From a virus (taxonomy: Duplodnaviria; Heunggongvirae; Uroviricota; Caudoviricetes), in IMG/VR virus record IMGVR_UViG_2698536618_000006, positions 1 through 9,928 of that record: a stretch of DNA of 9,928 nt. The stretch is one strand, 5' to 3'. Shown one piece after another: positions 1 through 9,928 of this stretch. Positions within the stretch are counted from its first letter, which is position 1. Every line of letters begins with the position of its first letter. The notes below the pieces were generated by a model. It saw nothing but the letters and a program-made list of their open reading frames with translations, ran no database searches and was not told where the DNA came from. The translations under genes and the position numbers were made by a program.

Positions 1-56
1 ACGGACTGCCCGTTGACGGACTTCAGGGGAAAAACGAGTATTTTTAGTCATCCTGT

Positions 57-689
57 TTACCTCTTTCTCAGGAAGTTTAGTCTCCAGGATTCCCGGGGCG
101 GTTCAATAAGGCGTTTTGCTTCCTCCTTTTCCAGCCATCTGACTCGCTTGTTTCTGACCGCTGGTATCTTGATGACAGGCGCTTTTTCCAGCCACTTCCA
201 GTCGCGTTCTGCAGCACGGAGAATGGCCTTTATCATGGCAAGATGCTTTGCCTTTGTCTGAGTTGATACTGGCTTTGGTTCATAAACAGGCAGTTCTTTA
301 CCTTTCCTGATGGCGGCCTGAACTTTCTGTTTCCATATTTCTTTCGTCTTTCTGTTATGCATTCTGCTTACAGCAGAGTAAATCTTTGCCTCCGAGATAT
401 CTTTAAGCCTTATACCCTCAAAATGTTCAAGCCAGAACTCAATCCGGCTTTTATCTGAATCGAGAGATTTTTTATCAGCTTTTTCCTCAAGCCATCTTAG
501 GCAGGCCTCTTCAAAAGTGACATCAGGTAAATCCCCTAGCTTTTCTACTCGCCAGAGTTCTGCTTTTCGCTTGTCGTGCAACTCCTGAGCTTGCCGCTTG
601 TCCTTTGTGCCAAGAGATTCCTTAATTCGTTTCCCGCCCGGGAGCGAATACGAGGCATACCATATTTCATTTCTGCGGAAGAGTGACAT
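57..689 (-). CDS. int: Tyrosine integrase, N-terminal 210 aa only; the ORF hits a stop at 57-59 before any catalytic domain, so it is probably frameshifted or truncated
   Basis: ATG at 689-687, TAA at 59-57. Sits directly downstream of and overlapping an excisionase-like gene, as in lambdoid int-xis modules. The 210 aa lack the R-K-H-R-H-Y catalytic region expected in a 350-410 aa integrase. A different minus-strand frame stays open from about 102 to the window edge. Confidence 0.55.
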
Positions 690-916
690 TTTCTTTCCTC
701 TGTTATGCCATCACCCGCGCTCACCTGGACAGTATGCAGCGGAGACTGAAGCGCCGCAATGCAGGCTTGCCGTGTTGTGAGGTAAGGAGATTTTGGCTTG
801 GTTGGATCTTTACGTGTTGCCTGTAGGCGGCCTGTTCGTATCCAGTTGGTGGCGGTTGGTCTGGATATCTTAAGAAACTGACAGGCCTCATCGAGTGTGA
901 GGCTGTATGATTCCAT
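545..916 (-). CDS. xis: Excisionase / AlpA-like HTH DNA-binding protein
   Basis: Start chosen at the internal ATG 916-914 ([33 protein letters not shown]...), preceded by AGAGG. The N-terminal ~70 aa resemble AlpA/Xis winged-helix proteins. The ORF runs 123 aa and overlaps int by about 145 nt, which is long for an excisionase. Confidence 0.6.
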
Positions 917-1166
917 GGTTACCTCTGCTTTTTGAACGCATGTCACGTAACTTCTTAATGTGTTCTGCCGTTTCGATCTCTTCTGCTATCCGATCTGCAT
1001 CAGCTTTATTCACAGGTTCAAAGTCATGATTAAAGCGGAACATGCTGGCGATACATGTTCTGCCTTTTCGGATGTAGTGAACTTTGTTGTGGGTAGAACG
1101 CAGGATTTTGCAGGGAGTGCCGTGGTGGTCGACGTACCAGGTGTTAGGAAAAATGATTCTGAACAT
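888..1166 (-). CDS. Hypothetical phage protein (92 aa)
   Basis: ATG at 1166-1164 with GAGGTG Shine-Dalgarno 7 nt upstream. Same orientation as the flanking early-left genes. No family recognised. Confidence 0.45.
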   Translation of the reverse strand: MFRIIFPNTWYVDHHGTPCKILRSTHNKVHYIRKGRTCIASMFRFNHDFEPVNKADADRIAEEIETAEHIKKLRDMRSKSRGNHGIIQPHTR

Positions 1167-1213
1167 TTTTACACCTCAGTTGGACGATGTTGAAATTTGC
1201 TGCTTTGAGGCCA

Positions 1214-1432
1214 TCACAGTCCCCATTGTTTGTTCTTAAGTTCGATCTCCTCCTGGCAACTTGCACAAGTCCGACAACCCTGAACAGCCAGGCGTCTTCG
1301 CTCATCTATCGGATCGCCACACTCACAACAATGAGTTGCGGATACAGTCTGGTAGTTCTGACGACGCATTTTTATTGCTGTATTGCGCTGTAATTCTTCG
1401 ATTTCTGATGCTGAATCAATGATGTCTGCCAT
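1214..1432 (-). CDS. TraR/DksA-family C4 zinc-finger protein (72 aa)
   Basis: ATG at 1432-1430. C-x2-C ... C-x2-C motif (CCECGDPIDERRRLAVQGCRTCASC) typical of phage TraR/DksA-like proteins. Confidence 0.7.
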   Translation of the reverse strand: MADIIDSASEIEELQRNTAIKMRRQNYQTVSATHCCECGDPIDERRRLAVQGCRTCASCQEEIELKNKQWGL

Positions 1433-1484
1433 CTTCCATTAATCCCTGAATTGTTGGTTAATACGCTTGAGGATGAATGCGAAC

Positions 1485-1508
1485 AATAAAAAAGGAGCCT
1501 GTAGCTCC
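1485..1508 (-). terminator. Candidate intrinsic terminator on the minus strand
   Basis: Hairpin GGAGC-ctgta-GCTCC (1494-1508) followed on the minus strand by a TTTTTTATT run (plus-strand A-run 1485-1493). Confidence 0.35.
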
Positions 1509-1530
1509 CTGATGATTTTGCTTTTCATGT

Positions 1531-1812
1531 TCACCGTTCCTTAAAGACGCCGTTTAACATGCCGATCGCCAGGCTTAAATGAGTCGGTGTGAATCCCATC
1601 AGCGTTACCGTTTCGCGGTGCTTCTTCAGTACGCTACGGCAAATGTCATCGACGTTTTTATCCGGAAACTGCTGTCTGGCTTTTTTGATTTCAGAATTAG
1701 CCTGACGGGCAATGCTGCGAAGGGCGTTTTCCTGCTGAGGTGTCATTGAACAAGTCCCATATCGGCAAGCATAAGCACACAGAATATGAAGCCCGCTGCC
1801 AGAAAAATGCAT
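1531..1812 (-). CDS. Hypothetical phage protein; start uncertain (ATG at 1812 or 1746)
   Basis: The track ORF starts at a TTG (1845). The first ATG is at 1812-1810, 11 nt after the methyltransferase stop; another ATG lies at 1746. Neither has a strong Shine-Dalgarno. No family recognised. Confidence 0.45.
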   Translation of the reverse strand: MHFSGSGLHILCAYACRYGTCSMTPQQENALRSIARQANSEIKKARQQFPDKNVDDICRSVLKKHRETVTLMGFTPTHLSLAIGMLNGVFKER

Positions 1813-1822
1813 TCCGTGGTTG

Positions 1823-2380
1823 TCATGCAGCCTCCCGACGGGCAAGAATCCTTGAGCCGAACGCCATCAACTCTCCACGATCAACGGTCGTAAAGTGGCA
1901 GTGTGTACGGGGGTATGGGTGCCAGATAATGAGCATCGAGCCTTTATTATTTCCACTGACGGGTTTCTCAGTGAGTGGGTTAATAAATGCCAGTCGTCCT
2001 GCCGTGATGAATCTGACCTCACTGGCGGTTTGTATCGCTTCATGAAACCATCCGACAGATGTGTCAGCAGGCAATAACATTACACATCCCACACTACTGA
2101 ATTTGTTTTCAGTGGCTGCCTTTTTCACAAAAGGGGAAATATTGCTGTATGGTGGATTCAACCAGACATAACCAGAGGCATATCCCATTGCTTCAGGCCA
2201 TGAAGTGGTTAATGTGTTCTGCTCCTGTGAGATAAAAAGCCGACATAGTCGGTTTTTTTCGCTGGCGGCAGCATCAAGTTGAAAAACGAACTCTGCATTA
2301 AGCGCAGCAAAAATCTCTGGTGGTGTGCGCCAGCTGTCGCGATGTTCGGCAGGAGTATTGCTTCCGGTGAAATCAGTCAT
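1823..2380 (-). CDS. Phage Dam-type DNA N6-adenine methyltransferase (orphan, 185 aa)
   Basis: ATG at 2380-2378 with a GGGGG Shine-Dalgarno-like run upstream. Contains the NPPY catalytic motif (VWLNPPYSN) of N6-adenine/N4-cytosine methyltransferases. Size and context fit the small phage Dam family. No restriction endonuclease gene is adjacent. Confidence 0.75.
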   Translation of the reverse strand: MTDFTGSNTPAEHRDSWRTPPEIFAALNAEFVFQLDAAASEKNRLCRLFISQEQNTLTTSWPEAMGYASGYVWLNPPYSNISPFVKKAATENKFSSVGCVMLLPADTSVGWFHEAIQTASEVRFITAGRLAFINPLTEKPVSGNNKGSMLIIWHPYPRTHCHFTTVDRGELMAFGSRILARREAA

Positions 2381-2534
2381 ACAGCCCCCGTTTATTATTT
2401 ATCGCCTCAGCCAGCCGCTGTGCTTTCAGTGGATTTCTGATAACAGAAAGGCCGGGAAATACCCAGCCTCGCTTTGTAACGGAGTAGATGAAAGTGATCG
2501 CGCCTACCCGGATATTATCGTGAGGATGCTTCAT
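2373..2534 (-). CDS. Small ORF (53 aa), translationally coupled to exo; resembles lambda orf60a by position and sequence
   Basis: Its ATG (2534-2532) overlaps the exo stop as ATGA, and its stop overlaps the methyltransferase start. Translation [53 protein letters not shown]. Below the ORF-track size cutoff. Confidence 0.4.
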
Positions 2535-3211
2535 CGCCATTGCTCCCCAAATACAAAACCAATTTCAGCCAGTGCCACGTCCATTTTTTCGATGAACTCC
2601 GGCACCATCTCGTCAAAATTCGCCATGTACTTTTCATTCCGCTCAATCACGACATAATGCAGGCCTTCACGCTTCATACGCGGGTCATAGTTGGCAAAGT
2701 ACCAGGCATCTTTTCGCGTCACCCACATGCTGTACTGCACCTGGGCCATGTAAGCCGATTTTATGGCCTCGAAACCACCGAGCCGGAACTTCATGAAATC
2801 CCGGGAGGTAAACGGGCATTTCAGTTCAAGGCCGTTGCCGTCACTGCATAAACCATCGGGAGAGCAGGCGGTGCGCATACTTTCGTCGCGATAGATGATC
2901 GGGGATTCAGTAACATTCACGCCGGAAGTGAATTCAAACAGGGTTCTGGCGTCGTTCTCGTACTGTTTTCCCCAGGCCAGCGCCTTAGCATTAACTTCCG
3001 GAGCCACACCGGTGCAAACCTCAGCCAGCAGGGTGTGGAAGTAGGACATTTTCATGTCAGGCCACTTTTTTCCTGAGCGGGGCTTTGCTATCACGTTGTG
3101 AACTTCTGAAGCGGTGATGACGCCGAGCCGTAATTTGTGCCATGCATCATCCCCCTGTTCGACAGCTCTCACGTCGATCCCGGTACGCTGCAGGATAATG
3201 TCCGGTGTCAT
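2531..3211 (-). CDS. exo: Lambda-type exonuclease (Red-alpha), 226 aa
   Basis: Full-length [43 protein letters not shown]... matches lambda Exo nearly residue for residue from memory. Its ATG overlaps the bet stop (ATGA). Confidence 0.95.
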
Positions 3212-3993
3212 GCTGCCACCTTCTGCTCAGTGGCTTTCTGTTTCAGGAATCCAAGAGCTTTCACTGCTTCGGCCTGTGTCAGTTCTGACGATGCGCGAAT
3301 GTCGCGGCGAAATATCTGGGAACAGAGCGGCAATAAGTCGTCATCCCATGTTTTATCCAGGGCGATCAGCAGAGTGTTAATCTCCTGCATGGTTTCATCG
3401 TTAACCGGAGTGATGTCGCGTTCTGGCTGACGTTCTGCAGTGTATGCAGTATTTTCGACAATGCGCTCGGCTTCATCCTTGTCATAGATACCAGCAAATC
3501 CGAAGGCCAGACGGGCACACTGAATCATGGCTTTATGCCGTAACATCCGTTTGGGATGCGACTGCCACGGCCCCGTGATTTCTCTGCCTTCGCGAGTTTT
3601 GAATGGTTCGCGGCGGCATTCATCCATCCATTCGGTAACGCAGATCGGATGATTACGGTCCTTGCGGTAAATCCGGCATGTACAGGATTCATTGTCCTGC
3701 TCAAAGTCCATGCCATCAAACTGCTGGTTTTCATTGATGATGCGGGACCAGCCATCAACGCCCACCACCGGAACGATGCCGTTCTGCTTATCAGGGAAGG
3801 CGTAAATTTCTTTCGTCCACGGATTAAGGCCGTACTGGTTGGCAACGATCAGTAATGCGATGAACTGCGCATCGCTGGCATCACCTTTAAATGCCGTCTG
3901 GCGAAGAGTGGTGATCAGTTCCTGTGGGTCGACAGAATCCATGCCGACACGTTCAGCCAGCTTCCCAGCCAGCGTTGCGAGTGCTGTACTCAT
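3208..3993 (-). CDS. bet: Bet (Red-beta) single-strand annealing protein, 261 aa
   Basis: [66 protein letters not shown]... recognisable as lambda Bet. Sits between gam and exo in the lambda order. Confidence 0.95.
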
Positions 3994-3998
3994 CCGTT

Positions 3999-4415
3999 TT
4001 ATACCTCTGAATCAATATCAACCTGATGGTGAGCAATGGTTTCAACCATGTACCGGATGTGTTCTGCCATGCGCTCCTGAAACTCAACATCGTCATCAAA
4101 CGCACGGGTAATGGCTTTTTTGCTGGCCCCGTGGCGTTGCAAATGATCGATGCATAGCGATTCAAACAGGTGCTGGGGCAGGCCTTTTTCCATGTCGTCT
4201 GCCAGTTCTGCCTCTTTCTCTTCACGGGCGATCTGCTGGTAGTGACGCGCCCAGCTCTGAGCCTCAAGACGATCCTGAATGTAATAAGCGTTCATGGCTG
4301 AACTCCTGAAATAGCTGTGAAAATATCGCCCGCGAAATGCCAGGCTGATTAGGAAAACAGGAAAGGGGGTTAGTGAATGCTTTTGCTTGATCTCAGTTTC
4401 AGCATTAATATCCAT
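3999..4415 (-). CDS. gam: Gam, RecBCD inhibitor, 138 aa
   Basis: [61 protein letters not shown]... matches lambda Gam. The internal Met at MNAYYIQ corresponds to the short Gam form. Confidence 0.95.
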
Positions 4416-4513
4416 TTTTTATAAGCGTCGACGGCTTCACGAAACATCTTTTCATCGCCAATAAAAGTGGCGATAGTGAATTTAGTCTGGATAGCCATAA
4501 GTGTTTGATCCAT
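4370..4513 (-). CDS. kil: Kil, host-killing / cell-division inhibitor, 47 aa
   Basis: Internal ATG at 4513-4511 of track ORF 4370-4639 gives [47 protein letters not shown], matching lambda Kil. Overlaps the gam 5' end and the cIII 3' end as in lambda. Confidence 0.85.
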
Positions 4514-4646
4514 TCTTTGGGACTCCTGGCTGATTAAGTATGTCGATAAGGCGTTTCCATCCGTCACGTAATTTACGGGTGATTCGTTCAAGTAAAGATT
4601 CGGAAGGGCAGCCAGCAACAGGCCACCCTGCAATGGCATATTGCAT
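4482..4646 (-). CDS. cIII: CIII, FtsH (HflB) protease inhibitor, 54 aa
   Basis: Internal ATG at 4646-4644 preceded by AAGGAG. Translation [54 protein letters not shown] matches lambda CIII. Confidence 0.9.
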   Translation of the reverse strand: MQYAIAGWPVAGCPSESLLERITRKLRDGWKRLIDILNQPGVPKNGSNTYGYPD

Positions 4647-4718
4647 GGTGTGCTCCTTATTTATACATAACGAAAAACGCCTCGAGTGAAGCGTTATTGG
4701 TATGCGGTAAAACCGCAC

Positions 4719-5087
4719 TCAGGCGGCCTTGATAGTCATATCATCTGAATCAAATATTCCTGATGTATCGATATCGGTAATTCTTATTCCTTCACTACCA
4801 TCCATTGGAGGCCATCCTTCCTGACCATTTCCATCATCCCAGTCGAACTCACAAACAACACCATATGCATTTAAGTCTTTCGAAATTGCTATAAGCAGAG
4901 CATGTTGCGCCAGCATGATTAATACAGCATTTAATAAAGAGCCGTGTTTATTTAGTTGGTATTCAGAGTCTGACCAGAAATTATTAATCTGGTGAAGTTT
5001 TTCCTCTGTCATTACGTCATGGTCGATTTCAATTTCTATTGATGCTTTCCAGTCGTAATCAATGATGTATTTTTTGATGTTTGACAT
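4719..5087 (-). CDS. ea10: Ea10-like protein (lambda Ea10/Ssb-type), 122 aa
   Basis: MSNIKKYIIDYDWKASIEIEIDHDVMTEEKLHQINNFWSDSEYQ... matches lambda Ea10 from memory, in the same position between cIII and ral. Confidence 0.85.
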   Translation of the reverse strand: MSNIKKYIIDYDWKASIEIEIDHDVMTEEKLHQINNFWSDSEYQLNKHGSLLNAVLIMLAQHALLIAISKDLNAYGVVCEFDWDDGNGQEGWPPMDGSEGIRITDIDTSGIFDSDDMTIKAA

Positions 5088-5105
5088 CTGTTCATATCCT
5101 CACAG

Positions 5106-5133
5106 ATAAAAAATCGCCCTCACACTGGAGGGC
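5106..5133 (-). terminator. Intrinsic terminator on the minus strand (tL3-like position between ral and ea10)
   Basis: Stem GCCCTC (5116-5121) / GAGGGC (5128-5133) with a 6-nt loop, followed on the minus strand by TTTTTTAT (plus-strand A-run 5108-5113). Confidence 0.55.
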
Positions 5134-5290
5134 AAAGAAGATTTCCAATAATCAGAACAAGTCGGCTCCTGTTTAGTTACGAGCGACATTGCTCCGTGTA
5201 TTCACTCGTTGGAATGAATACACAGTGCAGTGTTTATTCTGTTATTTATGCCAAAAATAAAGGCCACTATCAGGCAGCTTTGTTGTTCTG

Positions 5291-5470
5291 TTAACCAAGT
5301 TCTCTGGCAATCATTGCCGTCGTTCGTATTGCCCATTTATCGACATATTTCCCATCTTCCATTACAGGAAACATTTCTTCAGGCTTAACCATGCATTCCG
5401 ATTGCAGCTTGCATCCATTGCATCGCTTGAATTGTCCACACCATTGATTTTTATCAATAGTCGTAGTCAT
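5291..5470 (-). CDS. ral: Ral (restriction-alleviation protein), C-terminally truncated by a premature TAA: 59 aa where the lambda-type frame predicts 66
   Basis: ATG at 5470-5468. Translation MTTTIDKNQWCGQFKRCNGCKLQSECMVKPEEMFPVMEDGKYVDKWAIRTTAMIARELG then TAA (5293-5291). The same frame continues QNNKAA to a TGA at 5272-5270, which would give the 201-nt lambda-type gene. Confidence 0.8.
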   Translation of the reverse strand: MTTTIDKNQWCGQFKRCNGCKLQSECMVKPEEMFPVMEDGKYVDKWAIRTTAMIARELG

Positions 5471-5540
5471 ACGGATAGTCCTGGTATTGTTCCATCACAT
5501 CCTGAGGATGCTCTTCGAACTCTTCAAATTCTTCTTCCAT
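5454..5540 (-). CDS. Small acidic ORF (28 aa), lambda orf28-like
   Basis: ATG at 5540-5538 with AAGGTGA Shine-Dalgarno. Translation MEEEFEEFEEHPQDVMEQYQDYPYDYDY. Its 3' end overlaps the ral start. Confidence 0.5.
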   Translation of the reverse strand: MEEEFEEFEEHPQDVMEQYQDYPYDYDY

Positions 5541-5683
5541 ATATCACCTTAAATAGTGGATTGCGGTAGTAAAGATTGTGCCTGTCTTTTAACCACATCA
5601 GGCTCGGTGGTTCTCGTGTACCCCTACAGCGAGAAATCGGATAAACTCTATTCACCCCTACAGAGAGCAAAAGAGAAACGCCG

Positions 5684-6265
5684 ATGAACAACTCATGGTG
5701 GCAGGAACTAATGCATTTTTTCCTGCAAGGAATGACACTTAAACAGTTGATTCATATGCTAATCATCCTGATCATATTGATTATTGTTATGCCGGTAAGC
5801 GTAAAAGAATGGATAAACCTGCATAATCCAGAAATCCTTCCTCATTATTGGATGTATTACATCCTGTTGTTCTGCGTTAGCTATGTGCTTAACGGTGTTG
5901 TTAATTCCGCTTATCACGCTGTGACTGAAAGAATTGAGGTATCCGCTGCTCAGAAGCGCAAATCTAAAGAAGAAAAATATGTGCAAGATTTGTTTGATTC
6001 GTTAACTCTTGGAGAAAGAGCGTATTTGGCATTCGCTGTAGCCGCGAATAACCAGCTAAAGACAGAAAAGGGAAGCCCTGAAGCAATCTCATTGCTCGAA
6101 AAAGGGCTTCTTATTCGGATACCTTCTGCTACTGGATATCCTGAAATCGACCGTTTTGTTATCCCGGAACGCTATAGAAATGAGTGCTACATTAGGTTTG
6201 CTGGGAAGAAAGACAGTCTTATGGATGAACTTATCGCTCAGGATAAGCATGGCAAAAACAAGTAA
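5684..6265 (+). CDS. sieB: Superinfection exclusion protein B (SieB), membrane protein, 193 aa
   Basis: ATG at 5684. Hydrophobic N-terminal segment (LIHMLIILIILIIVMPV) and a sequence recognisable as lambda/P22 SieB. Plus-strand gene between ral and N, as in lambda. Confidence 0.85.
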   Translation: MNNSWWQELMHFFLQGMTLKQLIHMLIILIILIIVMPVSVKEWINLHNPEILPHYWMYYILLFCVSYVLNGVVNSAYHAVTERIEVSAAQKRKSKEEKYVQDLFDSLTLGERAYLAFAVAANNQLKTEKGSPEAISLLEKGLLIRIPSATGYPEIDRFVIPERYRNECYIRFAGKKDSLMDELIAQDKHGKNK

Positions 6266-6280
6266 TTAGCAAATGATTTA

Positions 6281-6553
6281 TCATCTCGCCGTCAGTTGTT
6301 TTGATTTCCTGTAGCCTGCCGCGTAAATGGCTACGTTTGGCAGGCAAACACTTCCACTGCATTCATCAACTTTCTTGCAGCGAAGACTTCCGAGTGATGC
6401 TGCTTTGTCTGCTCTGACGCAACCAGAGAGCTTTAGCGCAATTTTTCGCGCCAGTCGCTGCTCTTGCATCGCCTGTTCACGTTGAGCCTGTCTGCGTGCT
6501 CTGCGGCGATTTCTGGCGTTATCGTCAGCCAGATATGTAATGACTACTGTCAT
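6281..6553 (-). CDS. N: N-type transcription antitermination protein, 90 aa
   Basis: Internal ATG at 6553-6551 preceded by GGAGG (the track ORF begins at a GTG further upstream). Arginine-rich N-terminal motif DDNARNRRRARRQAQREQ and a C-terminus CLPNVAIYAAGYRKSKQLTAR like the N proteins of 933W and P22. First gene downstream of pL/nutL. Confidence 0.8.
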   Translation of the reverse strand: MTVVITYLADDNARNRRRARRQAQREQAMQEQRLARKIALKLSGCVRADKAASLGSLRCKKVDECSGSVCLPNVAIYAAGYRKSKQLTAR

Positions 6554-6863
6554 GTTGACCTCCGATGAAACAACTTTGGAATTGATAGTGATTGCAAAGT
6601 GGTTTCTGGCCCCTCGAATTGAGGGGCAGAAAGAGCATCTCGCCACCTAATAGGTCGATGCTCGGATCGAGAGATTTAATTAACCTCGGTTTTGAAGTTA
6701 TGCATTCACATAAATCCTCCTGTTGCATGTGCAGCATTGGCTGTGTTTGGCGGCTGCATTTCGCCTATGGAATTGACTTTGGCGGTGACGCGCCGGGTGC
6801 TTATCTTCCGGTTGCCGTCGTGCAGCTGCACTTCACGTCACCCCAAAGCCAACTACTCTTTGG

Positions 6864-6905
6864 TTCCCGCATTTCGGCGGGACAATCCCATCAATGTTAA
6901 AGAGC
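6864..6905 (-). promoter_or_regulatory. nutL: nutL: boxA GCTCTTTAACA plus boxB hairpin
   Basis: On the minus strand, GGCTCTTTAACA (plus 6895-6905), a 12-nt spacer, then UCCCGCCGAAAUGCGGGAA (plus 6864-6882). The same boxA core and an identical 19-nt boxB recur on the plus strand between cro and cII (8534-8578). Confidence 0.7.
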
Positions 6906-6951
6906 CTGCCAATCTGTTCCGTTTGGCTACCAGCGTCCTGCTGATGGTTAA

Positions 6952-6980
6952 AGAATACTGTAGGTATTTTATTTTGTAAA
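6952..6980 (-). promoter_or_regulatory. pL: pL early-left promoter: -35 TTTACA, 17-bp spacer, -10 TATTCT
   Basis: On the minus strand the -35 is at plus 6975-6980 and the -10 at plus 6952-6957. The -10 lies inside the OL1 operator and the -35 abuts OL2. The same -10 hexamer is used by the candidate pR. Confidence 0.6.
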
Positions 6981-7037
6981 TACTCAAGGTATTTATTTTG
7001 GTGAAATAATGATAAGCAAATGAATACAAAGGATATT
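6954..7037. promoter_or_regulatory. OL: OL operator array: three 15-bp sites with consensus AATAC-N5-GTATT
   Basis: AATACTGTAGGTATT (6954-6968), AATACTCAAGGTATT (6979-6993) and AATACAAAGGATATT (7023-7037, one mismatch). The first two are 25 bp apart, the same spacing as the OR sites. Confidence 0.6.
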
Positions 7038-7123
7038 TATTTTTTCGGCGTCTGCTTGTTCAGTGCTTTTTATGCGGGATATGTGAAGTGGATCCCGATA
7101 GCTATTGCTGCCGGGATTATGGG

Positions 7124-7492
7124 TTAGTCAGCGAAGGTTAAGACGAGAATTACCTTAATGATGTCTGCTACAACAGACACGGCCATAGATAAACCAAAGA
7201 CGATCCAAGCCATAGAGATGTCTTCACTACCATCGTATAGAGTTCCGTAATCACTGGTATAAGGCGTAAATGTCGCGCCTTGATACAATAGGTATAAGCT
7301 TGATCCATAGAGGATAAATGCAGATATCCCTTGTATTGCTATGATCACCAGAATCATGAAACGAGCTGATCTATGCGCCCAAGCCTGGCTTATTTTTTCT
7401 GATAGAGATTTCGCAAGAAAAGCATGCGCTAAGCCGTAAATTGTCGAGATTGCCAACATCCCAAAAAAGCTTGCTATAGCGGTTCCAACCAT
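7124..7492 (-). CDS. Small integral membrane protein (122 aa, three predicted TM helices), co-transcribed downstream of cI; function unknown
   Basis: ATG at 7492-7490 with AAGGGG Shine-Dalgarno 5 nt upstream; the track's 7513 start is a TTG. It begins 17 nt after the cI stop on the same strand. Three hydrophobic stretches: residues ~2-27, ~45-70, ~94-120. It occupies the position that rexA/rexB hold in lambda. Confidence 0.65.
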   Translation of the reverse strand: MVGTAIASFFGMLAISTIYGLAHAFLAKSLSEKISQAWAHRSARFMILVIIAIQGISAFILYGSSLYLLYQGATFTPYTSDYGTLYDGSEDISMAWIVFGLSMAVSVVADIIKVILVLTFAD

Positions 7493-7509
7493 AAGCGCCC
7501 CTTGCGTGA

Positions 7510-8226
7510 TCAAACCAGCCTTAGTTTTGTCTCAATTGCAACGCCTATAATCTTGCAGTTTCCATTGATTGGCACGAGAGGCCATGCAGGATTAAGTCCC
7601 TTGAGGTATTTATTTCCGCCGTCGATTATCAGCTTCTTGAATGTTGCTTCGTTAGAGTCAGAAAGTTTTGCTATGACCAAGCTGCCGTTGACCGCCTCCC
7701 TTCCGGTATCGAAAAGAACGAATGTTCCCTCTGGAATGCTTAACCCAACCGGTGCCGTCATTGAATCACCTTCCACTTTAAGCCAGAACGCATTACCTTG
7801 AATATGCGCGTCAGACTCAAGCCAAACATCTATGTCTTTAATGGTGTATGGTTCGCATGCTTCACACCACGAGCCAGCCTGGATACTGCTTAACACCGGA
7901 TACCTCTTTCCTGCTCTGTATTCCCCTGCATACCTTACGTTGGCATCGCTCTTAAGGCTTTCTGCCTGTTCTGCAACCTTGGCAGCAATTGACTGGCTAA
8001 AATCAGCAATTGAGACTTGCAACAACCGTGCAAAACCAGATGCAACCTCAACGTTTAGCGCGTTTCTGCCATTAAGATAATGCCCTACCGCTCCTTGGGT
8101 GATACCCAGTTCATCAGCGATTGAGTATTGGGTTATTCCCAATTCTTTCTTTTTTGACTCATACAAAGCCTTAAGCCGCTTAGCGTCTTCGAGCTGTTCT
8201 GTCGTCAGTGATTTTTTATTTTCCAT
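7510..8226 (-). CDS. cI: CI-type prophage repressor (HTH N-terminal domain, LexA-like S24 autopeptidase C-terminal domain), 238 aa
   Basis: ATG at 8226-8224. The N-terminal region resembles lambda CI (LTTEQLEDAKRLKALYESKKKELGITQ). The C-terminal domain resembles 434 CI / P22 C2, with an Ala-Gly cleavage site (IQAGSW), the catalytic Ser in GDSM and Lys in FKKL. Divergent from cro with operators in between. Confidence 0.9.
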   Translation of the reverse strand: MENKKSLTTEQLEDAKRLKALYESKKKELGITQYSIADELGITQGAVGHYLNGRNALNVEVASGFARLLQVSIADFSQSIAAKVAEQAESLKSDANVRYAGEYRAGKRYPVLSSIQAGSWCEACEPYTIKDIDVWLESDAHIQGNAFWLKVEGDSMTAPVGLSIPEGTFVLFDTGREAVNGSLVIAKLSDSNEATFKKLIIDGGNKYLKGLNPAWPLVPINGNCKIIGVAIETKLRLV

Positions 8227-8237
8227 AGCTTAATTCT

Positions 8238-8303
8238 AATAGCTAAGGTACTTAAACTAAAAATACCCTGAGTATTGATTGATTTGAATACCTGTAGTAT
8301 TCT
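8238..8303. promoter_or_regulatory. OR: OR operator region with pR (-35 TTGATT 8275-8280, -10 TATTCT 8298-8303) and a candidate leaderless pRM
   Basis: OR1 AATACCTGTAGTATT (8287-8301) and OR2 AATACCCTGAGTATT (8262-8276) are 25 bp apart; a degenerate third site AATAGCTAAGGTACT lies at 8238-8252. The pR -10 sits inside OR1. On the minus strand a TAGAAT hexamer (plus 8233-8238) lies 6 nt upstream of the cI ATG, suggesting a leaderless cI mRNA as in lambda. Confidence 0.6.
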
Positions 8304-8332
8304 TTGTTCATGGTTAATAACGGAGAGTGCAT

Positions 8333-8527
8333 ATGATTCGAATGACACTTGCCGATTACGCCAAAATCCATGGACAGGCTAAAGCAGCCAGTGACTTTGG
8401 TGTAATCCAGTGCGCTATCAGCAAGGCCATTCTGGCAGGCCGTAACATCATGGTTACGGTAAAGCCTGATGGCAGTGTGATTGGAGAGGAAGTTCGTCCT
8501 TTCCCAAGCAACAAGAAAAACAAATAG
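8333..8527 (+). CDS. cro: Cro repressor, 64 aa
   Basis: ATG at 8333 with GGAGA Shine-Dalgarno 6 nt upstream (the track start at 8327 is a GTG). [64 protein letters not shown] resembles lambda Cro. First gene downstream of pR. Confidence 0.85.
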
Positions 8528-8533
8528 TAACAC

Positions 8534-8578
8534 CGCTCTTTAACAGTCATGGTCATCACTCCCGCCGAAATGCGGGAA
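8534..8578 (+). promoter_or_regulatory. nutR: nutR: boxA CGCTCTTTAACA plus boxB hairpin
   Basis: boxA at 8534-8545, a 14-nt spacer, then UCCCGCCGAAAUGCGGGAA at 8560-8578, identical to the nutL boxB. A GCGCA...TGCGC hairpin with a T-rich tail at 8585-8618 may mark a tR1-like region. Confidence 0.7.
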
Positions 8579-8635
8579 TACAACGCGCATAATTTGATGC
8601 GCATAACTTCTTATTTGTTAAGGAAATACTTACAT

Positions 8636-8914
8636 ATGCAACTTACAAGTACTCGCAAGAAAGCGAATGCAATTACAAGCAACATCCTGAATCGAATTGC
8701 TGTACGTGGTCAGCGAAAGGTTGCCGACGCGTTAGGGATTAATGAATCGCAAATTTCGCGATGGAAAGACAGCTTTATCCCAAAGATGGCCATGCTTCTG
8801 GCTGTGCTGGAGTGGGGTGTTGAAGACGAGGAATTAGCAAAGCTAGCAAAGAAAGTAGCCATGGTGCTGACAAAAGAAAAGCCTCAAGACTGCTGCAACA
8901 GTTTTGAGGCCTGA
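8636..8914 (+). CDS. cII: CII transcriptional activator, 92 aa
   Basis: Start re-set to ATG 8636 (AAGGAAA upstream); the track ORF start at 8549 lies inside nutR. HTH region ...GINESQISRWKDSFIPKMAMLLAVLEWGV resembles lambda CII (...QISRWKRDWIPKFSMLLAVLEWGV). Confidence 0.85.
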   Translation: MQLTSTRKKANAITSNILNRIAVRGQRKVADALGINESQISRWKDSFIPKMAMLLAVLEWGVEDEELAKLAKKVAMVLTKEKPQDCCNSFEA

Positions 8915-8939
8915 TGTAGAAAGACTGGATCAATCCACA
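8872..8939 (-). ncRNA. oop: oop-like antisense RNA, candidate (terminator hairpin in the cII 3' end; promoter pO in the O 5' end)
   Basis: Minus-strand hairpin GCCTCAA...TTGAGGC (plus 8881-8910) followed by TTTTCTTTT (plus A-run 8872-8880). Candidate minus-strand promoter -35 TTGAGT / -10 CATAAT at plus 8946-8974. This matches the lambda oop arrangement. The 5' end is estimated. Confidence 0.45.
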
Positions 8940-8948
8940 GGAGTCATT

Positions 8949-9848
8949 ATGACAAATACAGCAAAAATACTCAACTTCTGCAGAGGTAACTTTGCCAAAC
9001 AGGAGCGTAATGTGGCAGATCTCGATGATGGTTACGCCAGACTATCAAATATGCTGCTTGAGGCTTATTCAGGCGCAGATCTGACCAAGCGACAGTTTAA
9101 AGTGCTGCTTGCCATTCTGCGTAAAACCTATGGGTGGAATAAACCAATGGACAGAATCACCGATTCTCAACTTAGCGAGATTACAAAGTTACCCGTCAAA
9201 CGGTGCAATGAAGCCAAGTTAGAACTCGTCAGAATGAATATTATCAAGCAGCAAGGCGGCATGTTTGGACCAAATAAAAACATCTCAGAATGGTGTATCC
9301 CTCAAAACGAGGGAAAATCCCCTAAAACGAGGGATAAAACATCCCTCAAATTGGGGGATTGCTATCCCTCAAAACAGGGGGACACAAAAGACACTAATAC
9401 AAAAGAAAAAAGAAAAGATTATTCGTCAGAGAATTCTGGCGAATCCTCTGACCAGCCAGAAAACGATCTTTCTGTGGTTAAACCGGATGCTGCAATTCAG
9501 AGCGGCAGCAAGTGGGGAACAGCAGAAGACCTGACCGCCGCAGAGTGGATGTTTGACATGGTGAAGACTATCGCACCATCAGCCAGAAAACCGAATTTTG
9601 CTGGGTGGGCTAACGATATCCGCCTGATGCGTGAACGTGACGGACGTAACCATCGCGACATGTGTGTACTGTTCCGCTGGGCATGCCAGGACAACTTCTG
9701 GTCCGGTAACGTTCTTAGCCCGGCCAAACTCCGCGACAAGTGGACCCAGCTCGAAATCAACCGTAACAAGCAACAGGCAGTCGTGACAGCCAGCAAACCA
9801 AAACTCGACCTGACAAACACAGACTGGATTTACGGGGTGGATCTATGA
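8949..9848 (+). CDS. O: Replication initiator O, 299 aa
   Basis: Start re-set to ATG 8949 (AGGAG upstream). MTNTAKILNFCRGNFAKQERNVADLDDGYARLSNMLLEAYSG... closely matches lambda O along its whole length from memory. It contains the iteron origin internally, and its stop overlaps the P start. Confidence 0.95.
   Translation: MTNTAKILNFCRGNFAKQERNVADLDDGYARLSNMLLEAYSGADLTKRQFKVLLAILRKTYGWNKPMDRITDSQLSEITKLPVKRCNEAKLELVRMNIIKQQGGMFGPNKNISEWCIPQNEGKSPKTRDKTSLKLGDCYPSKQGDTKDTNTKEKRKDYSSENSGESSDQPENDLSVVKPDAAIQSGSKWGTAEDLTAAEWMFDMVKTIAPSARKPNFAGWANDIRLMRERDGRNHRDMCVLFRWACQDNFWSGNVLSPAKLRDKWTQLEINRNKQQAVVTASKPKLDLTNTDWIYGVDL
9296..9420. repeat. ori: Lambda-type replication origin: four iterons (about 9296-9381) plus an A/T-rich region (9382-9420) inside O
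   Basis: Four tandem ~19-24 bp repeats, each an inverted repeat of the form TCCCTCAAAACGAGGGA (ATCCCTCAAAACGAGGGA, AAATCCCCTAAAACGAGGGA, ACATCCCTCAAATTGGGGGA, ATCCCTCAAAACAGGGGGA), followed by ACAAAAGACACTAATACAAAAGAAAAAAGAAAAGATTATT. Confidence 0.8.
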
Positions 9849-9928
9849 AAAACATCGCCGCACAGATGGTTAACTTTGACCGTGAGCAGATGCGTCGGAT
9901 CGCCAACAACATGCCGGAACAGTACGAC
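9845..9928 (+). CDS. P: Replication protein P (helicase loader), 5' end only; continues past the window
   Basis: ATG at 9845 overlapping the O stop (ATGA). MKNIAAQMVNFDREQMRRIANNMPEQYD matches the lambda P N-terminus. Confidence 0.9.
   Translation, partial: MKNIAAQMVNFDREQMRRIANNMPEQYD

Follow-up and report, generated by a model that had tools for sequence, protein, structure and literature searches.

The stretch of DNA analysed here (the window; 9,928 nucleotides, positions 1 to 9,928 of IMG/VR virus record IMGVR_UViG_2698536618_000006, Caudoviricetes) carries a small gene of the hkaS family directly downstream of the phage repressor gene cI. This gene (7124–7492, minus strand; HK140_049 of coliphage HK140) codes for 122 aa plus stop and was assigned by PHROG 6534 and by orthology; its product, HkaS, which was also modelled with AlphaFold2 (AF2), is predicted to be a polytopic inner-membrane protein. 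It was found that hkaS is the fixed, selectively maintained slot occupant of a whole repressor family, present in E. coli, in Stx2c-converting phages of enterohaemorrhagic E. coli (EHEC) and in Salmonella, Hafnia and Buttiauxella prophages, and that it is linked to the C-terminal half of cI. We regard it as highly likely that hkaS codes for a protein and belongs to the cI operon. Judged from position and protein type, the most likely selected function would be anti-phage exclusion or abortive infection (Abi) at the inner membrane, which is put forward tentatively, as the leading candidate among several.

Over 1,681 bases around hkaS the window was 100% identical to coliphage HK140 (JQ086370), whose record coordinates equal the window coordinates plus 23,254. 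The immunity regions of HK620, HK630, mEpX2, HF4s, two vB_EcoP phages and two Stx2c-converting phages were 98–99% identical. The lambdoid early region around hkaS was standard, with SieB, N, cI, Cro and cII all giving strong Pfam matches. The repressor gene cI (7510–8226, minus strand, 238 aa) is the first gene of the operon, and its product was 99–100% identical to the HK620 and HK140 repressors. It consists of an HTH_3 DNA-binding domain (PF01381, 8e-10) and a Peptidase_S24 half (PF00717, 1e-23), which is the autocleavage and oligomerisation domain.

The cI stop codon (TGA, 7512–7510) is followed by exactly 17 nt (7493–7509, minus strand) and then by the hkaS ATG at 7492; the gene ends with a TAA at 7126–7124. 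An AAGGGG Shine-Dalgarno sequence was read in the spacer at 7503–7498, 5 nt from the ATG. The description given in an earlier sequence-only reading of this DNA, a 122-aa open reading frame (ORF) 17 nt past the cI stop with its own AAGGGG, was thus borne out, on the minus strand, which that reading had left unstated. The coordinates attached to it, 7124–7513, were those of a mechanical ORF of 129 aa that starts at an upstream TTG; the 122-aa ORF itself runs from 7492 to 7124. The TTG start, which is used by some gene callers, was rejected, as it is unconserved in other lineages and out of frame with an 18–19-nt spacer. The Salmonella copy has an in-frame TAA directly 5' of the hkaS ATG, and other lineages have no upstream start codon. 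These in-frame stop or non-start codons, together with the loss of the TTG frame in 17 of 79 copies, indicated that the ATG is the real start.

A spacer of 17–20 nt with a purine-rich Shine-Dalgarno sequence was found in every lineage. Among the 79 IMG/VR copies it measured 17, 18 and 19 nt in 62, 12 and 5 cases, respectively, and differed in length only in the G-run. Across these loci (L022–L101) the Shine-Dalgarno sequence read mainly AAGGGG, AAGGGGG or AAGGGGGG, and this homopolymer may tune the translation of hkaS. An alternative coding explanation was discarded because the antisense ORFs were short and unconserved, and nothing relevant among structured RNAs was found in Rfam. The GC content of hkaS was 42.0% versus 52% for exo/bet, so that the region is indeed AT-richer than the recombination genes, as had been judged by eye; the feature is not peculiar to the slot, being shared by the stretch 4400–6400 and the immunity region (39–44% GC). 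For the same reason the low GC was not taken to indicate a foreign origin, the neighbouring early-left and immunity genes being similarly AT-rich.

The gene hkaS was found to be maintained. All 80 copies on IMG/VR viral contigs were intact 122-codon genes, and the cI C-terminus (ETKLRLV and stop) lay 17–19 nt upstream in 79 of the 79 loci with enough flank. Within this population, the codon variants comprised 20 synonymous and 18 non-synonymous ones, which gave a pN/pS of roughly 0.3 when about three non-synonymous sites were assumed per synonymous one; all replacements were conservative (I/V/L/M, A/S, S/T). The 122 codons were kept free of indels in eight lineages down to 53% identity, among them those of Hafnia (82%), Salmonella (60%), Buttiauxella (54%) and two metagenomic lineages (56% and 53%), plus the representative P0013. 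The dN/dS was 0.15 against the Hafnia orthologue and 0.15–0.2 where dS was unsaturated; for distant pairs pS was 0.77–0.88 (saturated) and pN 0.27–0.33. Thirty-six residues were invariant across the family alignment. Of 5,426 complete E. coli genomes, 146 (2.7%), O111:H8 strain 8234 among them, carry hkaS, always on the chromosome and always beside a gene annotated as 'LexA family protein', and intact 122-aa proteins are annotated by RefSeq in the sampled E. coli chromosomes.

One isolated, plaque-forming HK620-like phage, HF4s (MT833387; L019 401–768), was found to carry a frameshifted hkaS, recovered as two tblastn pieces and annotated as a 77-aa remnant only. Because HF4s is viable with this copy, hkaS is dispensable for lytic growth. 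HF4s is also a natural hkaS knockout, comparable with HK620 for exclusion or induction phenotypes. This frameshift, the singleton truncated variants P0004, P0007 and P0008 and the lack of any family annotation are what could be expected of a chance or decaying ORF in the spacer between cI and oL. Such an origin is effectively refuted by the conservation described above, namely the 80 intact copies, the invariant length over saturated synonymous sites, the low dN/dS and the invariant residues, and by a confident AF2 model obtained from only eight sequences.

The sequence-only reading had proposed an undescribed exclusion or defence function; as an ORF, the gene is not undescribed. It has been annotated as hkaS, product 'unknown', in the HK620 record AF335538 since 2001 (96.7% identical to the window protein), as HK140_049, 'hypothetical protein', in the HK140 record, and as 'hypothetical protein' in the RefSeq entries WP_000233126/WP_000233129; it also matched PHROG 6534 ('unknown function') over residues 1–122 of 122 with an E of 6.1e-79. 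The gene has therefore been an annotated ORF for more than two decades, and a gene riding on the repressor transcript is of a well-known type, but the protein family is isolated. No above-threshold match was obtained in Pfam; hits to Cation_ATPase_C (E 0.0018; 18.5 bits against a cut-off of 27.3) and TssN (E 0.039) were sub-threshold and were dismissed as hydrophobic-segment noise. No match was found in NCBIfam, in a sequence profile search of the PDB at E ≤ 10, or among PHROGs other than 6534 below E = 0.1. A word-indexed search of 5.8 billion proteins returned 12 clusters, all of the hkaS family, and a profile hidden Markov model searched against 1.84 billion representatives returned the hkaS family only, plus a 44-aa fragment. 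Among 185,579 species-representative genomes there was one carrier of an hkaS relative, an uncultured Buttiauxella. Foldseek against viral models gave no match at E ≤ 0.001, and fold searches gave generic helix bundles only; HkaS is thus a plain three-helix membrane bundle to which no function could be transferred. The profile and structure searches that had been proposed thus led to no characterised family, and the view that the protein is neither RexB nor SieB was upheld by Pfam, PHROG and HHalign, which also gave no sign of Hex or of a recognisable holin.

The operator and promoter positions given below are the annotations of the HK620 record mapped onto the window with 0–1 mismatches. On the upstream side of cI lies the right operator region (8237–8302), with OR3 at 8237–8253, OR2 at 8261–8277 and OR1 at 8286–8302, and the promoter pR at 8275–8310. 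The slot is bounded on the other side by the left operator/promoter region (6945–7038, minus strand), with pL at 6945–6980, OL1 at 6953–6969 and OL2 (AAATACTCAAGGTATTT) at 6978–6994, beyond which nutL is placed at 6865–6906; in a consensus scan, 6980–6952 on the minus strand likewise came up as promoter-like. Thus cI-hkaS is a two-gene operon bounded by oR and oL. The lysogenic promoter pRM is unannotated in the HK620 record, and the consensus scan of the window did not pick it up; from lambdoid architecture we infer that it lies between cI and cro and would drive cI-hkaS. From OR to the end of hkaS, the same scan found no sigma-70-like site on the minus strand. As no promoter-like site lies inside cI and the 17-nt spacer is too short for a promoter or a terminator, hkaS would depend on the transcription of cI, which would come from pRM in the lysogen and from pRE while lysogeny is being established. 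Co-transcription with cI, which had been supposed from the outset, is therefore the straightforward reading of the geometry and of lambdoid architecture.

An RNA hairpin (7092–7117, minus strand; −13.7 kcal/mol, z = −3.9) without a U-tract was found 9 nt past the hkaS stop. A stable hairpin, unrelated in sequence, comes after the hkaS stop in every lineage. Those of Hafnia, Salmonella and L007 sit at the corresponding position (z −2.1 to −4.7), and post-hkaS hairpins were located at L003 6381–6421, L007 5465–5494, L009 1832–1859 and L017 ~2892–2915. The last of these, from Buttiauxella, is followed by a U-run and forms a canonical terminator, AACCCGGACTCCGATCCGGGTTTTTTATT; it is the sole lineage with a U-tract. 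The hairpin at 7092–7117 is probably the 3' end or a stabiliser of the cI-hkaS transcript, and in the E. coli phages it may act as a weak or factor-dependent terminator or as a stabiliser of the mRNA 3' end. The HK620 record places hkaS between cI and tIMM ('termination of cI transcript'), so that the transcript is taken to end after hkaS. As the operon terminator, tIMM itself was rejected: the stretch has no hairpin and carries an operator-like 17-mer instead. This 17-mer, GAATACAAAGGATATTT at 7022–7038, fits the AATAC-N6-TATT consensus of OL1, OL2, OR1 and OR2, and the annotated OL3 (6999–7015, TGGTGAAATAATGATAA) does not. Three operator-like 17-mers downstream of hkaS are conserved in all lineages. 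By comparison of these sequences, GAATACAAAGGATATTT is probably the true OL3, and the OL3 and tIMM annotations of HK620 (window 6999–7042; L001 2729–2772) are probably misplaced.

Three hydrophobic segments were seen in HkaS, at aa 3–27, 45–70 and 93–120, with Kyte-Doolittle 19-mer maxima of 1.6–2.3. The AF2 model, built from eight sequences only (mean predicted local distance difference test score 89.6, predicted template modelling score 0.73), showed helices at residues 2–29, 31–38 (short and amphipathic), 41–73 and 89–121, and a small beta-hairpin at ~78–86. The three transmembrane (TM) helices of the sequence-only reading were thereby recovered both by hydropathy and by modelling. Loop 1 carries four K/R, and loop 2 carries no K/R and four D/E. 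By the positive-inside rule these charges predict an N-out/C-in protein, with the N-terminus and loop 2 in the periplasm and loop 1 and the C-terminus in the cytoplasm. HkaS is very probably an inner-membrane protein with about this topology.

The five regions were delimited by hydropathy, alignment and the model. TM1 (aa 3–27; 7412–7486, minus strand, as for the following regions) starts at the putative periplasmic N-terminus and bears a conserved ladder of small residues, G3-x3-[A/G]7-x3-G11. The predicted cytoplasmic loop 1 (aa 28–44; 7361–7411) contains the short amphipathic helix and is the best conserved of the five regions (mean 0.78), with K33, W38, H40, A43 and R44 invariant. TM2 (aa 45–70; 7283–7360) holds an invariant Q54 and a YLLY motif at its periplasmic end. 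Loop 2 (aa 71–92; 7217–7282), predicted to be periplasmic, is acidic and aromatic-rich; the tip of its modelled beta-hairpin is the most variable part of HkaS, and 2 of its 22 positions are invariant. TM3 (aa 93–120; 7133–7216) carries the invariant D110 and K113, and the C-terminal stretch D110-x-x-K113-x-I-[LF]-V-L-T-F-A-D is near-invariant, ending without a tail on what is predicted to be the cytoplasmic side. Three invariant polar residues, Q54, D110 and K113, thus lie inside the predicted bilayer. The conserved TM3 positions 96, 99, 106, 110, 113 and 117 recur every 3–4 residues and so form one helical face. The ladder, the polar residues and this face suggest that the helices pack tightly and perhaps that HkaS oligomerises.

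Class I holins such as lambda S105 have three helices and an N-out/C-in topology. The topology predicted for HkaS from charge bias would be the same, and a pRE transcript would run through cI into hkaS. A role in the phage's own cycle was therefore considered, either in the establishment of lysogeny or as a membrane protein of the holin or antiholin kind. Such a role appears very unlikely: hkaS lies outside the lysis cassette, matches no holin family in Pfam or PHROGs and ends in VLTFAD without a charged C-terminal tail; the frameshift is tolerated in the plaque-forming HF4s; and a holin expressed constitutively with the repressor would be lethal.

In every locus examined, hkaS follows the same repressor family, and everything outside cro-cI-hkaS is mosaic. 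The flanking modules differ in their N genes, in replication (O/P, O/DnaB or primase-helicase) and in recombination (RecT, Erf, Rad52-like or Bet/Exo). The cI-hkaS unit also spans virion types, from the P22-like podovirus HK620 and the Hendrixvirinae siphovirus HK140 to lambda-like HK630, mEpX2 and Stx2c phages, and this independence from virion type speaks for a general role in the lysogen and against one in morphogenesis. Synonymous divergence was alike in cI and hkaS (pS 0.47 vs 0.44 for Hafnia; both saturated elsewhere), which indicated that the two genes are inherited together.

The linkage was found to be with the C-terminal domain of the repressor. The hkaS gene followed every repressor whose C-terminal domain is at least 88% identical to that of HK140, and none of those at 68–81%. 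In Buttiauxella a hybrid repressor (L017 1833–2869, CBCPKK010000004) has a DNA-binding domain of 23% identity and an S24 domain of 89% identity, and hkaS is present. The Cro and the N-terminal helix-turn-helix of this Buttiauxella prophage are of a different immunity type, and a clear mosaic junction lies inside its cI. In Serratia phage OS31 the N-terminal domain of cI is 85% and the C-terminal domain 75% identical, and the slot is empty.

Other relatives fill the slot differently. In Erwinia phage vB_EhrS_49 (cI 65% identical) a 200-aa soluble hypothetical protein, a further passenger of a repressor operon, is encoded 12 nt past the cI stop (L013 2530–3132). Cronobacter phage ENT39118 (L014 2621–2983, 120 aa) and Escherichia phage CharmingMan (L018 2439–2744, ~100 aa), whose cI C-terminal domains are 77% and 81% identical to that of HK140, carry homologous soluble ORFs with the shared motif GFNY[EQ]F.TT..DGVEFA[IV]YERIDN.FVLVDFF; in CharmingMan a canonical terminator directly follows cI and precedes the ORF. 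By sequence, this ORF is a second recurrent cargo of the cI-downstream slot. The survey downstream of cI that had been called for thus showed that the slot is variable between repressor families and fixed within the HK620-type family; the varied cargo that had been anticipated was seen across related phages and not within that family, where the slot always holds hkaS.

Co-inheritance with the S24 domain rather than with immunity specificity, as in Buttiauxella and Serratia OS31, would fit a factor for the stability of lysogeny. The accessory protein Hex of phage 434 is a precedent in the same slot, behind a repressor whose C-terminal domain is 72.5% identical to that of HK140 (PMC3564112). By analogy, the cytoplasmic face of HkaS, where its best-conserved parts (loop 1 and ILVLTFAD) are predicted to lie, could modulate the RecA-stimulated autocleavage, the oligomerisation or the turnover of the cI C-terminal domain and thereby tune spontaneous or SOS induction, perhaps according to the condition of the envelope. 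We consider this improbable. Adjacency alone explains the co-inheritance, because with a junction in the cI linker the C-terminal domain and the next gene form one DNA block; moreover, HkaS has no sequence similarity to Hex, which is no polytopic membrane protein, exposes only ~20 residues to the cytoplasm, and is dispensed with by the relatives whose C-terminal domains are 68–81% identical. A more specific proposal, to which still less weight was given, is that HkaS might be a membrane-embedded partner of the cI C-terminal domain, serving as a sensor or anchor. Through it the cleavage, oligomerisation or stability of cI would respond to the condition of the envelope or to an incoming phage, and prophage induction or immunity would come under control from the membrane. 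This proposal is compatible with the C-terminal co-inheritance, which physical linkage accounts for just as well, with the cytoplasmic conservation and with the action of the unrelated Hex on the same domain family (PMC3564112).

In our preferred account, hkaS would share the transcript of cI, which would start at pRM in the lysogen and at pRE while lysogeny is being established, and would be translated from its own Shine-Dalgarno sequence. The three-helix protein would then be inserted in the inner membrane, with its N-terminus and the acidic beta-hairpin loop in the periplasm and a basic amphipathic helix and the C-terminus on the cytoplasmic face. It would stand alone and would probably be oligomeric, by way of the TM1 ladder and of Q54, D110 and K113 in the bilayer. 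From the inner membrane HkaS would protect the lysogen against superinfecting phages, either by blocking genome entry, as do P22 SieA, T4 Imm and HK97 gp15, or, in the manner attributed to RexB, by bringing down membrane function when an infection is sensed. The interval between cI and N has been described as a mosaic hotspot that holds exclusion and Abi genes (PMC8585504, citing Degnan et al. 2007; PMC3564112).

Several observations weigh against this account. In a comparison with defence systems that reached to 2023, no family of PADLOC-DB 2.0.0 matched HkaS at E ≤ 10; no similarity to known exclusion proteins was found in Pfam or PHROGs, and no functional study of hkaS was found in the accessible literature. 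No RexA-like sensor gene is present, as the window has no other ORF between cI and oL. The most conserved surfaces of HkaS are predicted to be cytoplasmic and not periplasmic, so that the entry-block version is not particularly favoured. The fixed cargo is unlike that of a typical defence hotspot, and the hairpin of the E. coli phages lacks a U-tract. At equal synonymous divergence, amino-acid change was ~4-fold faster in hkaS than in cI (dN 0.099 vs 0.024, and 0.34–0.40 vs ~0.08), but this is no evidence of an arms race, being also expected of a less constrained small membrane protein.

The position in the operon, the 42% GC, the dispensability and the presumed constitutive expression with cI are equally features of a moron-like gene of lysogenic conversion. 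HkaS could thus benefit the lysogen by altering envelope physiology, for example leakage of ions or small molecules, tolerance of stress or antimicrobials, or colonisation. The conserved intramembrane Q54, D110 and K113 would suit a transport or channel role, hkaS is carried by EHEC strains as well as by commensal, animal and environmental ones, and the slot holds non-defence cargo elsewhere, as in phage Huey, with an annotated PagP-like lipid A acylation protein beside the repressor. Wider distribution would be expected of a generally useful gene than the narrow, prophage-only spread observed (the single carrier among the species representatives, none on plasmids). Such a host-fitness role is a real possibility, although an unlikely one, and anti-phage action at the inner membrane was retained ahead of it.

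If HkaS does exclude phages, it would be a new single-gene membrane defence that is missed by current defence-finding tools, and it would be relevant to the prediction of host range in phage therapy. An action on the repressor would instead be of interest for the stabilisation or induction of Stx-type prophages. The gene is small, non-essential and present in the culturable phages HK620, HK140, mEpX2 and HK630, and is therefore cheaply testable; it is a candidate, and no discovery yet.

Elsewhere in the window, a full-length SieB-family superinfection-exclusion gene was found at 5684–6265 (plus strand; PF14163 1.4e-25, phrog_1301 2e-123), antisense within the pL operon region, so that HK140 already has one recognised exclusion gene near its immunity region. 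HkaS itself did not match the SieB profile (PF14163), and in loci L003–L011 no SieB Pfam match was found near hkaS; the two genes are thus unlinked. About 120 bp between nutL and N (6650–6771) are specific to HK140, the other phages of HK620 immunity aligning from 6772 onward. The 41-aa ORF HK140_048 (6706–6831, minus strand) has as its sole support the similarity note in the HK140 record (N-terminus, E. coli B354 hypothetical protein). To the right of the operators lie Cro (8327–8527, plus strand; Pfam) and cII (8549–8914, plus strand), and the large ORF beyond cII is replication protein O according to the HK140 record. The annotated cII product has 121 aa, its Phage_CII Pfam match begins at residue 30, leaving ~29 extra N-terminal residues, and the cII of HK620 and relatives has 92 aa; judged from the sequence, the true start is probably the internal ATG (MQLTSTRKK).

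Among known systems, the slot of hkaS corresponds to that of rexAB in lambda, as had been noted earlier: the lambda record gives the order cI-rexA-rexB-oL3, RexB is likewise a small polytopic inner-membrane protein, and hkaS also lies between cI and oL with presumed co-transcription from pRM. Unlike rexB, hkaS follows cI directly, and three helices are predicted for HkaS versus four reported for the 144-aa RexB. No PF15968 match was obtained at E ≤ 1, and HHalign of the family alignment gave a probability of 0.6%. Together with RexA, RexB makes up an abortive-infection system; RexB alone is not known to exclude phages.

The hex gene of phage 434 resembles hkaS in being an accessory gene directly downstream of cI. 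Hex was shown by reverse transcription PCR to be on the pRM transcript and is reported to exclude P22 and to stabilise lysogeny; the RecA-mediated cleavage that it is reported to inhibit is that of the repressors of 434 and P22, and not that of lambda cI or LexA (PMC3564112). It differs from HkaS in that its annotated 134-aa reading has a signal-peptide-like hydrophobic start and no predicted transmembrane segment, and its ORF overlaps the end of cI. The HHalign probability with the family alignment was 0.1%.

P22 SieA, T4 Imm, HK97 gp15 and lactococcal Sie2009 block genome entry. They share with HkaS that they are small membrane proteins of phages or prophages, and they act alone; their genes lie outside the cI operon, and none gave a family match to HkaS. 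SieA and gp15 act on the injection machinery proper to certain virion types; hkaS, by contrast, accompanies the repressor across unrelated ones. For SieA, a single inner-membrane protein was found to be necessary and sufficient for exclusion, in a study that uses HK620 and makes no mention of hkaS (PMC10883804). BstA, of BTP1 and relatives, is an abortive-infection prophage defence encoded directly downstream of cI, presumably from a shared promoter and with conserved synteny (PMC8585504). In contrast to the 122-aa membrane protein HkaS, which has no similarity to it, BstA is large, soluble and DNA-associated and has a cis-acting anti-BstA element. In general type hkaS resembles the accessory genes, or morons, of repressor operons: hkaS lies on the cI strand with no intervening promoter or terminator, has its own ribosome-binding site, is followed by a hairpin or terminator and, as the frameshifted copy of HF4s illustrates, is dispensable for lytic growth.

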